Shown here in pieces: positions 15,067-18,676 of a stretch of 64,000 nt of DNA. The notes beneath the pieces are model-generated. The model did no database searches, was not told where the DNA came from, and saw nothing but the letters and a program-made list of their open reading frames with translations. The stretch comes from a virus, in the IMG/VR virus record IMGVR_UViG_3300024983_000001, positions 1 to 64,000 of that record; one strand, given 5' to 3'. Position numbers and translations under genes: made by a program. The number at the start of each line of letters is the position of its first letter. The stretch's first letter is position 1.

Positions 15067-15109
15067 CTAAACGATTATACAGAAATTAGTATTTTTTTCA
15101 ACTGCAAAG

Positions 15110-15134
15110 AAAAAGGAGTCAAAGACTCCTTTTT
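15110..15134 (-). terminator. Intrinsic terminator after clpP
   Basis: AAAAAGGAGTC-AAA-GACTCCTTTTT. Confidence 0.8.
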
Positions 15135-15157
15135 GATTCGATCATTTGTTTTGTGAT

Positions 15158-15826
15158 CTAGTTTGTGGCAACTTGCTCCAATCCCTCAACATCATCGGTT
15201 ACTTTCCCAACTTTTTTGCTGGTTTTGGGTTTGGTTTGAATCGTCGATGTTTTTGTTAGATCCTTAAACATCTTGTTTAACCGCTTACGAACATCATCTG
15301 TATCTAACCATAGGTCCTCACCTTTCGTAATACGCTCAATTTCTTCGTGTGTCAAAAATGGATAACACAATTTTTTCATTAGTTTGTTAAACCATTTCTT
15401 TGTAGCTAGTAATTCGGCCTCTTGTTCATTGCCTTTACCATACATGCCGCTTGAATATGTGTGAAACATCATTTGACAGTCTTCATGAACTTGGAATTCG
15501 TCACCAGCAAGAAAAAGAAGTGTGCCTAGCGAATGTGCGGTTGATTCTAACACAGTAACTACGTGGGCTTGTGAACTACGAATGGCATTGATGATTTGCA
15601 CACCTGTATCTAATCTACCGCCTGGGGTATTAAGATGAATATAGATAACATCTTGTGGATTTGCTACTTTAATTCGGTGAATCATATCAACGTATTCGCC
15701 TGGTTCTCCCACAGGATCGCTTATGTAAAACGATATGTGTTTTGAAGGAATTGACATTTCGTACATCGAATATGGAAGCTGTTTGAACTCATCCTTACGT
15801 GTACTCGTTTTTTTATTATGGGACAT
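15158..15826 (-). CDS. clpP: ClpP-family serine protease
   Basis: HLNTPGG, AHSLG (Ser), MMFH (His), EDLWL (Asp). Confidence 0.85.
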   Translation of the reverse strand: MSHNKKTSTRKDEFKQLPYSMYEMSIPSKHISFYISDPVGEPGEYVDMIHRIKVANPQDVIYIHLNTPGGRLDTGVQIINAIRSSQAHVVTVLESTAHSLGTLLFLAGDEFQVHEDCQMMFHTYSSGMYGKGNEQEAELLATKKWFNKLMKKLCYPFLTHEEIERITKGEDLWLDTDDVRKRLNKMFKDLTKTSTIQTKPKTSKKVGKVTDDVEGLEQVATN

Positions 15827-15908
15827 ATAGATTCCTTCTGTTATGGTTATAATTATGTTCTAACTACAAACGTATTTATTATACCAAACTTTTTTGAAGA
15901 CCTCAATG

Positions 15909-15933
15909 AAAAAGGCTCCCGAAGGAGCCTTTT
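15909..15933 (-). terminator. Intrinsic terminator ending the tmRNA transcript
   Basis: AAAAGGCTC-CTTCGG-GAGCCTTTTT (UUCG loop) on minus strand. Confidence 0.85.
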
Positions 15934-16195
15934 AACCGTTTTGTTACAACGTGGTCAACGTCGGATTAGGCTGCAAGAGCCATATCGAAATGCGAGTCAT
16001 TTGCATTTATAGTTTTTGCTAGATTAACGTGATTCGCCTCACGAGTCTCTTGTTGTCATAATTCCCGTCAATCGATACCGTGGCATCCCCAGTGTCATTC
16101 AACATAAATAGATGTGGAATGGGTGCATATTATGGGTGGAGATGGAGGGAGTCGAACCCTCTTCTTGCCCAGCTTTGCTACAACCGTCATCAACT
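15934..16195 (-). ncRNA. ssrA: Circularly permuted (two-piece) tmRNA; acceptor piece ~16195-16134, intervening segment ~16133-16091, coding piece 16090-~15934; tag (A)ANDSHFDMALAA
   Basis: GGGGAUG (16090-16084) pairs with CAUCUCC (16144-16138) including G3.U70; discriminator A; T arm GAGGG-UUCGACU-CCCUC; resume codon GCA at 16004 after AUAAAU; tag ends LAA-UAA at 15966. Confidence 0.93.
16103..16110 (+). promoter_or_regulatory. Late promoter (CATAAATA) inside the tmRNA intervening segment, facing the endonuclease
   Basis: CATAAATAGATG at 16103-16114 is identical to the 12-mer at 326-337 upstream of the other endonuclease. Confidence 0.55.
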
Positions 16196-16200
16196 GGATA

Positions 16201-16208
16201 TATTTATA
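16201..16208 (-). promoter_or_regulatory. Late promoter TATAAATA for the tmRNA precursor
   Basis: Perfect TATAAATA immediately 5' of the acceptor piece. Confidence 0.7.
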
Positions 16209-16209
16209 C

Positions 16210-16818
16210 ATGAAGAATCGAAAAAAATCAACAATTTCCCTTACGTGCACAAAGTGTGGGGATCCCTTTGAACGAACCGTGTCCGATCACCAACGCCGTT
16301 TGAATAAGTTGCCAGATAGTACGAACTTCTTTTGTGGGAGAAGTTGTAGTTCAAGTTACCGTAACAGTCATCGTGCTAATAATGGTAACCATTTAAAGGA
16401 ATATCGGTTTGTGGTGGGTGATACCGCACGAATGGTATACGATCGGAATTTTACGTGGTATATTCATCGGCTCACTACAGATCGCAGACGTGGTTTAAAA
16501 TATAGCGGCGATCGGTTAGAGTTGCAGAGCATGCTAATGGATCAGTGGAAAATACAACAGGGGCGATGTGCCATTACTGGTGTACACTTACAATTACGAA
16601 TTGGCGCATCTGGTCAGTGTGACACAGATAATGTGTTCCAGATTGCCTCGGTCGATCGTATTAACAATGAATTGTCGTACACAAAAGGAAACGTACAGTG
16701 GGTTTCAATGGCGATTAATCGAGCCAGAGGGAACACAGATTTGTCTTTATTTAAGGAGCACTTATCCAACCTCGTGCAGACTATAGAGACAATTAATCAA
16801 GAACAATACAAAAAATAA
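16210..16818 (+). mobile_element. His-Me finger (HNH-like) endonuclease with N-terminal zinc ribbon
   Basis: CTKC and FFCGRSC; QQGRCAITG...SVDRI...YTKGNVQWV...IN. Confidence 0.7.
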
Positions 16819-16867
16819 ATCTTTTATTTTAAGGTTTACAACCATTAAAACTATTTATTTAAAATAA

Positions 16868-16983
16868 TACACTAAAAGACATTTCGGCCAAGAGCTTCGC
16901 GGCTCGTTCTGATGGGTCACGGCCTTGTCTGGTCAAGAACAAGCAAAAAATCCAGTTTACTAACCAAAATGCCTTTTAATGTA
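16868..16983 (-). ncRNA. Unclassified ~116-nt rod-shaped RNA with a central bubble
   Basis: 22-bp terminal stem with five G.U pairs, inner stem GCUUGUUCU(U)GA/UCAGAACGAGC, TATAAATA at 16993-16986 directly upstream. Confidence 0.7.
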
Positions 16984-16998
16984 ACTATTTATACAACA

Positions 16999-17411
16999 AT
17001 TGTAAGGCGCGCATCGTAATTCCCTCTGAATATGCCAGTTAGGTCAATTCCCAAACTAGACTACAAGATATCGAGAACTATCCAGGATTACCGCAACGCT
17101 GTTACAATAGTTAAACTCGTTTGTTTCAAAATGCAGTCAATGGCTCTATTCACTTTAAACGGTCTTCTGTGGCCGTACCGTAATGACGCAATCCGGTATT
17201 GCATCATCCAACTGCATTTTCAAATATTCGCGTCAGTGTTTGTCGCTAATTCGGCCACATAAGGGGGTAGATTTGTTGTCAGGTAAATCACCAAGCCTTA
17301 TATCTAGCTCAAAAGAACGAGATTTAAAAAAGGACTCTCGATCAGACCTAGCGTGTGTTTTGCGAGATCGATATCCTACACTCACGAATATTTGAAAAGT
17401 GTTTTACTCTT
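16999..17411 (-). ncRNA. Unclassified ~410-nt multi-domain structured RNA (or tandem small RNAs)
   Basis: Three stem-closed domains (17398-17217, 17220-17128, 17108-16999); no credible ORF; consensus sigma70 promoter upstream. Confidence 0.65.
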
Positions 17412-17417
17412 TTGTTA

Positions 17418-17446
17418 ATTATATACCAAAGTAAAAATATTGTCAA
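17418..17446 (-). promoter_or_regulatory. Consensus sigma70 promoter
   Basis: TTGACA-17 nt-TATAAT. Confidence 0.8.
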
Positions 17447-17994
17447 CAATCTCGTTATCAAAATCTTCTTTTATTTTGCTTTTGGAACCGTCTTTACAAT
17501 GTACTTGATACCATTAAACACAATCGGCTCGCCCATTATTCGGTGTTTGTTTACGTTTATTCCAGCATCAACCATACGCCGGAATAAGTCTGATTGTAAT
17601 GCTTTCATTGTTTTGATTCGAAAAACTTATGATTAAACCATCGTTTTGCTGTGGCCGACCTACTAATCCACATTAGTGCAGAACCTGCCAATAACATCAT
17701 ATTGAAATATGGTATAGCGGAAAGTAATAGTACTGTAAGGAAAAAATCTAGCGTCAAATATCCATCTAGATCTCGTTGAATCAACGAGATTCCTACAAAG
17801 GTTAGCACAGCAGACACCACCCACAATACCCAAATCATTTTATTTCTCCTACCTTATGAAAGGTGATTCCTAAAAACTTTTCTGCAAATCGTTCCATCAA
17901 AATAAGTGGATACATATTCGCGATTATAAAATATGCCCACACTTTATAAACTGTTGGGTGCCAGCCATACATGGTATTCTCCCGCAATAATCAA

Positions 17995-18315
17995 CTATTT
18001 GTTTTTCTTTAGAACGTGTATTGTATCTGGAGTATCCCAATGAGTGCACCACATCCTATCTGTGATCCATCGATCTACTTTTGGATTTGCGCACCAAACC
18101 TTGATATCCGTTGTTGTTTTTCCAGGCAATGTTATTAATCTGGCATCTTTAGCACGAGCAATGTCACCCTCATCAGTGCTATCAATTCCACCCTGATCGT
18201 TTAATTCATCGGCCTCGACAACTTTGTGGCGTTGTCCTTTGCTGAACATGCAACTAGAACAGTTGAGTCTAGTAACTAAATGTTCTGCTTCCAACAGTTG
18301 TTGTAGTAAACGCAT
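17995..18315 (-). CDS. Small 4-Cys protein (HiPIP-like Cys pattern), paralogue 1
   Basis: CSSC...WC...WCTHW; aligns by eye with 18328-18642. Confidence 0.6.
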   Translation of the reverse strand: MRLLQQLLEAEHLVTRLNCSSCMFSKGQRHKVVEADELNDQGGIDSTDEGDIARAKDARLITLPGKTTTDIKVWCANPKVDRWITDRMWCTHWDTPDTIHVLKKNK

Positions 18316-18327
18316 TTTTAGTACCCT

Positions 18328-18642
18328 CTACTTATACTCTTCGTGAATACCAGGAGCATTCCAAAAGTTACAACACATCCGTTCCGTTACCCACTGATCC
18401 ACGGCGGGTTGTTTACACCAGAGCTTGATAGTAGGGAACTTTGCACCAGGCATTGTAATCAAATCTGCTTTCTTGGCGCCTGCAATATCTTGTTTTGATG
18501 TGGGGTCAATCCCCCCAAACTTATTCAAATCGTCTTCTGTAACCTTTTCCGTTTTTTGATGTTTGGTAAAGTCACAATTAACGCAAGATGTGCCTTCTAT
18601 AATTTTTGGTTGTTCTTGCTCCATCAGTTCACGAATGTTCAC
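18328..18642 (-). CDS. Small Cys-rich protein (HiPIP-like Cys pattern), paralogue 2
   Basis: CVNC...WC...CCNFW; shares LN..GGID, DIA.AK.A.LIT.PG. Confidence 0.6.
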   Translation of the reverse strand: MNIRELMEQEQPKIIEGTSCVNCDFTKHQKTEKVTEDDLNKFGGIDPTSKQDIAGAKKADLITMPGAKFPTIKLWCKQPAVDQWVTERMCCNFWNAPGIHEEYK

Positions 18643-18676
18643 ACTTGATCACCACTCAATTAGTATCGAGCGTTGC

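Follow-up and report, generated by a model that had tools for sequence, protein, structure and literature searches.

What might be transcribed from a perfect sigma70-type promoter that no gene follows? Such a promoter lies within the first 64 kb of a 257-kb record of an uncultured T4-like jumbo phage in IMG/VR, a record that is 78% complete. These 64 kb are the window analyzed here, and all positions are counted from its first nucleotide. A first-pass annotation, made from the letters alone, had described about 410 nt of structured RNA in three domains behind the promoter and had offered two readings, i.e., a new early noncoding RNA or a precursor of several small RNAs next to the tmRNA. We find that the locus is a real, uncatalogued, promoter-driven structured RNA candidate, the significant parts of which are smaller and more variable than first noted.

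The locus and its neighbors

The genes of the window are on the minus strand almost throughout, and they include those for topoisomerase II, a DnaG-type primase, a ClpP-like protease, DHFR and Acb1. The topoisomerase is only ~35% identical to that of the nearest isolates. The RNA genes of the genome comprise 48 tRNA genes, a suppressor tRNA and a two-piece tmRNA, and the tRNA clusters are at 122-215 kb, far away from the noncoding block. This block is flanked by a run of small ORFs, the last of which ends at 17471, and by a plus-strand ORF at 16132-16818. Small early genes, that for Acb1 among them, adjoin the locus. Beyond the plus-strand ORF come the tmRNA gene (16248-15907) and clpP, in this order. 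The downstream neighbor at 15907-16248 is a permuted tmRNA gene on the minus strand, detected by Rfam models RF04321 (103 bits) and RF01850 (90 bits) and by ARAGORN.

The plus-strand ORF at 16132-16818 is a free-standing HNH/EndoVII-like homing endonuclease gene (phrog_3322 and phrog_1035, E 2e-14), convergent with the predicted noncoding transcript. Its 228-aa product is identical across 14 public contigs and 100% identical in both alleles of the locus, which are described below. The gene is confined to the same lineage and is not found in the more distant relatives. One of these relatives (L005) has a different HNH endonuclease-like ORF in another position (1978-2721), with C-terminal similarity at E 1e-7. 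Because this ORF is different and located elsewhere, endonuclease invasions appear to be independent in this phage group.

A consensus promoter without a reading frame

The promoter (17418-17446, minus strand) consists of TTGACA at 17446-17441, a 17-nt spacer and TATAAT at 17423-17418. It matches the consensus at 12/12 positions, as had been reported, and transcription is predicted to start near 17411 on the minus strand. It belongs to a promoter class that we define as TTGACA-N16-18-TATAAT on the gene strand, enriched over chance. There are 13 perfect sites genome-wide, against 0-1 in Markov simulations, and 69 sites with at least 11/12 matches, against 6-15; these sites are co-oriented with the genes. 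Since both counts are far above the simulations, the promoter at 17446-17418 is not a chance match. It is one of only five among the 69 strong promoters that have no ORF of at least 35 aa preceded by a Shine-Dalgarno (SD) sequence within 1.5 kb. For the other strong promoters, the median distance to an SD-preceded ORF is 51 nt. Strong promoters without a close ORF are often just upstream of tRNA genes (e.g., 131779, 132244, 176693 and 182098). Because several of them directly precede tRNA genes, we conclude that the phage uses sigma70-type promoters for RNA genes.

The first-pass annotation had seen neither a ribosome-binding site nor an ORF after the promoter, and this holds on closer inspection. 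The only minus-strand ORFs behind an SD-like sequence are 9, 16 and 23 aa long. A Pfam search of the six chance ORFs in the block returned no matches, and tblastn of the proteins that occupy the syntenic slot in the relatives found nothing in 16819-17470. A pseudogene is rejected on the latter ground, since these proteins have left no trace in that interval. A 39-aa frame in domain 2 was likewise rejected because its changes between the alleles are mostly non-synonymous. With neither a Pfam match nor a credible SD-preceded ORF, coding readings are rejected overall.

A second promoter-like element is found further downstream. The T4-type late-promoter motif TATAAATA is at 16986-16993 on the minus strand, just upstream of the last structured module, in the long allele only; it is absent from this position in the short allele (L002). 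This motif has 34 copies in the genome, whereas simulations give 9-21. The window contains nine of them, eight on the minus strand.

Strand-specific folding of the noncoding block

Downstream of the promoter, ~540 nt of the minus strand are gene-free and structured. The block extends further downstream than the ~410 nt first described, because a module that we call the rod (16983-16868) directly follows them. Folded as a whole, 423 nt give a z-score of -2.96 on the minus strand vs. -0.79 on the plus strand.

Domain 1 (17217-17398, minus strand) has a closing helix of 16 bp + 5 bp around two hairpin branches. All of the stems previously listed for it are present in both the MFE and the centroid structures. 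Its MFE is -55.5 kcal/mol and none of 200 shuffles was as good; the z-score is -5.56 (minus strand) vs. -2.31 (plus strand). Six consecutive U follow its first inner hairpin. Domain 2 (17128-17220, minus strand) folds as it had been drawn, with a closing helix of 10-11 bp, two hairpins (one of 10 bp, the other of 5 bp with a 13-nt loop) and 21 nt of single strand. It is nearly equally stable on the two strands (z -3.77 minus vs. -3.41 plus). The rod (16868-16983, minus strand) consists of a 24-bp helix with six G.U pairs that closes a branched interior, and its z-score is -4.41 (minus strand) vs. -1.99 (plus strand). After it, no further structured element precedes the endonuclease gene.

Thus, of the three stem-closed domains that had been proposed, shuffle z-scores support the first two, and the third does not stand. 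"Domain 3" (16999-17108, minus strand) is not significantly structured (z -0.77 minus, -0.96 plus). The complementary strings listed for it do exist, yet 43 of 200 shuffles fold as well, and the MFE and centroid structures disagree. We regard it as an allele-specific spacer. It holds a 9-codon mini-ORF behind a GAGG motif.

A search of the 64-kb window for inverted repeats (at least 13 nt, within 250 nt) gave 18. Two of them close domains 1 and 2, and the domain 1 stem is the sole perfect long-range one. A z-score scan of the first 30 kb in 249 windows, with a background of -0.5 ± 1.4 (mean ± sd), puts the window inside domain 1 third. Since some coding windows in the same 30 kb score about as low, the z-score alone is no proof of an RNA.

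Three further observations concern folding and composition. The most extreme fold in the first 30 kb is that of a 180-nt window (z -7.7) around a perfect 16-bp hairpin at 316-363, which is located at the point at which the direction of transcription switches. Within the block, 17263-17252 of domain 1 is complementary at 11/12 positions to the 13-nt loop of the second hairpin of domain 2 (17175-17164) on the minus strand. Judged from this pairing, the two segments could form a kissing contact; the complementarity is not beyond chance, the loop is unchanged in the short allele, and its partner is missing there. Finally, GGCC is under-represented in the genome, with 338 copies against ~480 expected. 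Four copies are found in the 545-nt block at 16868-17412, each in or beside a predicted helix or loop.

Two alleles and helix-preserving changes

Neighbor-protein and exact-protein look-ups yielded ~20 public contigs of this phage species, contributed by several projects, and we compared them. Measured between fixed anchors, the block shows just two forms among them, and both recur unchanged in many independent assemblies. The long allele, which is the form in the window, has 711 nt between the anchors. Its sole real variant is an A to G change at 17197 in a loop of domain 2 (L027 additionally has two N calls). The short allele has 476 nt, and all of its copies are identical. Between the alleles, the flanks are 98-99% identical, and the block is 73-94% identical with large indels.

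The short allele retains domain 2 and the rod and is without domain 3 and the TATAAATA motif at 16986-16993. In domain 1, the interior (~17384-17231) is replaced by a 2-nt loop, which leaves a small hairpin with both strands of the closing helix kept, so that here the indels respect helix boundaries. The existence of two such different alleles indicates that the domain 1 interior and domain 3 are dispensable. Domain 2 is the sole module of the originally noted region that is common to both alleles, at 94% identity, and in the short allele a G to C change extends its closing helix to 16-17 bp. The promoter of the short allele matches the consensus at only 9/12 positions.

The differences between the alleles preserve the main helices. 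Three pairs differ in the helices of domain 2, and all are still paired via G.U; six pairs differ in the main helix of the rod, and all are still paired, one by a double change. Thus, all nine differing pairs in the main helices of these two modules remain paired, though the choice of main helices is partly post hoc. Eight of the nine alternate between Watson-Crick and G.U pairs on the minus strand; read on the plus strand, they would be A.C mismatches. The remaining one is a double change from G-C to A-U. If either strand were equally likely, finding 8/8 on one strand would have a one-sided p of ~0.004. When the MFE structure of the window is used as it is, with no choice among helices, pairing survives in 9 of 13 changed pairs on the minus strand vs. 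1 of 8 on the plus strand; the four broken pairs on the minus strand belong to minor predicted hairpins. Because there are two alleles only, covariation statistics are weak. We take the pattern as modest but real evidence of selection on a minus-strand RNA, seen in domain 2 and the rod and limited by the two alleles available.

The haplotypes also differ outside the block. In the short-allele haplotype, clpP and the primase gene are separated by 2.5 kb of additional sequence (window 15084-15183 vs. L003 6644-9141). This insert encodes the anaerobic ribonucleotide reductase NrdD and its radical-SAM activase, and the haplotype of the window is without it. At 17972-18669, small Cys-rich ORFs of 106 and 104 aa in the window are replaced in the short-allele haplotype by unrelated sequence with ORFs of 82 and 96 aa, and the flanks of this island are 98-99% identical between the haplotypes. 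In addition, an 11-bp perfect direct repeat brackets the noncoding block (16820-16830 and 17467-17477). One copy is right after the stop codon of the endonuclease gene, and the other overlaps the stop codon of the upstream 45-aa ORF. The repeat may be due to chance, since it is AT-rich and not exact in the short allele.

Searches for homologs and known families

The first-pass annotation had recognized no tRNA, RNase P, SRP or intron core in the block, and covariance-model searches against Rfam 15 found no known family there. The models (4227) include group I and II introns, 6S, Y RNA/YrlA, GOLLD, ROOL, HEARO, riboswitches, ribozymes and DicF. At gathering score, they found only the tmRNA and one tRNA in the window and nothing in the block. 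With permissive filters and E<=5 over 15500-18000, nothing was found within 16819-17470, and the short allele also was without a match. ARAGORN detected no tRNA-like element in the block.

Searches for homologs gave the same picture. BLAST against 50,697 phage records returned no match for the block or for the surrounding 8.5 kb. Exact-word scans of IMG/VR with words from four modules found just the two close relatives. Further 17-mer matches in IMG/VR (L033-L036) were set aside as chance, with model scores of at most 15 bits. The rod 19-mer had eight matches in unrelated taxa among GTDB genomes, about the number expected by chance, and none was supported by the models. A metagenome scan with the ClpP neighbor found no new close relatives. 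In the phage's own genome, BLAST at word size 7 and covariance models found no second copy of any module, and DNA and covariance-model searches of the records of four more distant relatives found no homolog.

In the more distant relatives, whose ClpP is 50-59% identical, an ORF lies directly before the tmRNA, and the endonuclease, the noncoding block and the upstream small ORFs are absent. One of them (L004) lacks the entire 2.7 kb from the 65-aa ORF to the tmRNA. Because the relatives are without the block, the endonuclease and the upstream small ORFs, we place the locus in a hyperplastic slot. As far as these searches reach, the noncoding block is confined to one phage species. By the same comparisons it matches no catalogued RNA family and has no homolog beyond that species, and it is thus an uncatalogued candidate.

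Several types of element can be rejected. A retron msr-msd is rejected, as there is no RVT_1 match in the 257-kb record (78% complete). A Y RNA/YrlA acting with Ro60 (Rsr) is rejected because there is no TROVE match in the record, no match to the Rfam Y RNA models and no tRNA-like element in the block. A MITE or IS-derived repeat is rejected because the block is single copy and the flanking 11-bp direct repeat is AT-rich and not kept in the short allele.

Comparison with known RNAs

The T4 rnaC and rnaD RNAs (species 1 and 2) are similar to the block in being small, stable, folded RNAs of T4-type phages, encoded in an RNA-gene neighborhood with a free-standing homing endonuclease gene (in T4, segB in the tRNA region). 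The fold of rnaC is also strong (z -4.6). However, our covariance models R1 and R2 of the block did not match the T4 rnaC/rnaD locus (L032), i.e., there is neither sequence nor structure similarity. In addition, rnaC ends in a tRNA-like T arm, of which the block has none. The T4 RNAs directly adjoin tRNA genes of their own strand; the block, in contrast, is parted from the tmRNA by an inverted gene. With no R1 or R2 match, no tRNA-like element and distant tRNA clusters, we do not assign the block to the rnaC/rnaD type. The T arm of T4 rnaC (L032 1909-2047) is closed by a terminal helix, which is reminiscent of the tRNA-mimicking Y-like RNAs.

The larger noncoding RNAs GOLLD, ROOL and HEARO, together with 6S RNA, are comparable in being multi-domain phage noncoding RNA or in the stem-bubble-stem outline of the rod. 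They differ in that the block is smaller, is not conserved across lineages, and has no Rfam model at E<=5 within 15500-18000.

Some precursor RNAs are processed at long helices. Examples are the RNase III sites of T7 early RNA, the processing stems of rRNA and the DicF precursor of the dicBF operon. The block resembles them in its tandem modules with ends joined by helices of at least 20 bp, located after an early-type promoter, though its processing is predicted. There is no sequence similarity between the block and DicF or the other processed precursors, and the Rfam DicF model has no match.

A different precedent is CfrI in the T4-like cyanophage S-PM2. According to the account accessible through PMC2984593, this noncoding transcript lies opposite a homing endonuclease gene and has been proposed to be antisense (Millard et al. 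2010, via PMC2984593). It is given there as ~225 nt long, overlapping the endonuclease gene and psbA, and as seen experimentally (PMC2984593). On that account, CfrI and the block are alike in lying opposite a homing endonuclease gene in a T4-like phage, and they differ in that the fold of the block is outside the gene, with any overlap presumed. At our locus, the geometry is convergent, and no terminator is called between the promoter and the endonuclease gene.

A model for the locus and the rival explanations

We suggest that the block is a lineage-specific, stand-alone, modular early noncoding RNA gene in a hyperplastic region, whose transcript is processed and acts in trans. We hold this reading with about even confidence. 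It builds on the promoter, the absence of ORFs, the strand-specific fold, the helix-preserving variation and the modular alleles, all of which are observed; transcription, processing and function we infer from them. Host sigma70 RNA polymerase would start near 17411 on the minus strand, and the transcript would fold co-transcriptionally into domain 1, domain 2, the unstructured spacer ("domain 3") and the 24-bp rod. Domain 2 and the rod would be the conserved scaffold, and the domain 1 interior and the spacer would be exchangeable inserts. Terminal helices would join the ends of the modules; they measure 21 bp in domain 1, 24 bp in the rod and 16-17 bp in short-allele domain 2, and they may delimit and shield stable RNAs that are 100-180 nt long. 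Precursors cut by RNase III are expected to have helices of ~20 bp or longer where modules meet. Domain 1 (16+5 bp) and the rod (24 bp) have such helices, and the 16-17-bp helix of short-allele domain 2 was counted along with them. Cleavage is probably by a host double-strand-specific RNase of the RNase III type. Since we found no RNase III gene in the phage record, such cleavage would need the host enzyme. Once excised, the RNAs may bind proteins or serve as decoys in trans while the host is being taken over. Read-through past the rod would also give RNA antisense to the endonuclease gene, which is possible because there is no canonical terminator between the rod and this convergent gene.

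Of the two original readings, a new early noncoding RNA is thus retained in part. The block is ORF-free, promoter-driven, structured and without a known family; domain 3 is unstructured, and the transcript would be early as judged from the type of its promoter alone. A precursor shared with the tmRNA is unlikely, because the 687-nt endonuclease gene lies between them in the opposite orientation and the tmRNA has its own TATAAATA promoter at 16208. Some observations speak against the reading that we prefer. Divergence between the alleles is higher in the block than in its flanks, and half of the block can be dispensed with. The promoter of the short allele matches at 9/12 positions only, and domain 2 folds nearly as well on the plus strand. 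The four broken pairs, the coding windows with similar z-scores and the lack of homologs beyond one phage species also count against it.

The main rival is an antisense or cis-acting unit, which we consider unlikely but serious. The promoter would drive transcription head-on into the endonuclease gene so as to shut this gene down early, through antisense RNA or transcriptional interference, and/or would provide early read-through to the tmRNA and clpP, and the folds would just stabilize the 5' part of the transcript. The promoter, the folded block and the convergent endonuclease gene, 100% identical in product, are arranged alike in both alleles, no intrinsic terminator is called between 17411 and 16818, and CfrI against a homing endonuclease gene in S-PM2 is a precedent (PMC2984593). 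However, interference needs no 540 nt of helices under RNA-level selection. The rod ends 50 nt before the 3' end of the gene, so that an overlap depends wholly on presumed read-through, and the tmRNA has its own TATAAATA promoter at 16208. The second rival, also improbable, is a nonfunctional hypervariable spacer left over from cassette exchange and endonuclease-linked recombination, with hairpins that are relics or due to chance and with an orphaned promoter. Such turnover is visible around the locus, i.e., in the 2.7 kb missing from L004 and in the neighboring islands swapped between haplotypes (17972-18669, and 15084-15183 with its 2.5-kb insert in L003). The unstructured domain 3, the dispensability of the domain 1 interior and domain 3, and the divergence of the block relative to its flanks also favor this rival. 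A spacer does not account for strand-biased folds, for G.U-rich helices without A.C, or for main-helix changes of which 9/9 are still paired, and it is hard to reconcile with a perfect promoter and with alleles that are each invariant across many samples.

Two other explanations carry far less weight. A DNA-level element, either a T4-type replication origin at which the promoter transcript primes replication or a protein-binding palindrome or operator, is very unlikely. It is suggested by a strong gene-less promoter near the primase and topoisomerase genes, with a 14-bp perfect inverted repeat just downstream. There are no iterons or tandem repeats at the locus, though, and the cumulative GC skew shows no turn at 17 kb, so that neither mark of a T4-type origin (iterons or a switch in strand composition) is found. 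A DNA palindrome also does not explain why G.U pairs make the fold better on one strand, and the relatives, which must replicate too, are without the element. It is least probable of all, and hardly credible, that the product is just a short sRNA of ~85 nt that ends at the first inner hairpin of domain 1 (~17328), with the rest untranscribed or incidental. A hairpin with a U-run at 17377-17326 is visible in sequence and fold. But with a loop of ~22 nt this hairpin is beyond what the terminator scan can call, it is missing from the short allele, and the signal of RNA-level selection is further downstream in domain 2 and the rod.

Returning to the stand-alone RNA gene, a more far-reaching version of it is conceivable, though we regard it as quite doubtful. 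The locus may be an RNA counterpart of the protein-gene cassettes in hyperplastic early regions of phages, i.e., a scaffold of domain 2 and the rod with exchangeable structured inserts, of which natural populations would maintain two alleles alongside each other because the RNAs serve as decoys or inhibitors of variable host factors or defenses.

Implications

Restricted to a single phage species, the candidate is of limited general importance for now. Nevertheless, structured phage RNAs such as T4 rnaC and rnaD have been unexplained for decades, and they are seldom annotated in uncultured phages. Here, a natural pair of long and short alleles marks the core and the optional modules. Because the promoter is defined and should be recognized by an E. 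coli-type polymerase, the RNA can be made and probed without the host of the phage. In addition, the head-on position relative to the endonuclease gene offers a test of early antisense restraint of selfish nucleases. Other units of this kind may be present in the same genome. Near-consensus sigma70 promoters at 185669-185823 (+), 138653 (-), 119948 (-) and 95278 (-) have no SD-preceded ORF, or none for 0.9-1.25 kb. They are not beside tRNA genes, and they may mark further noncoding units.
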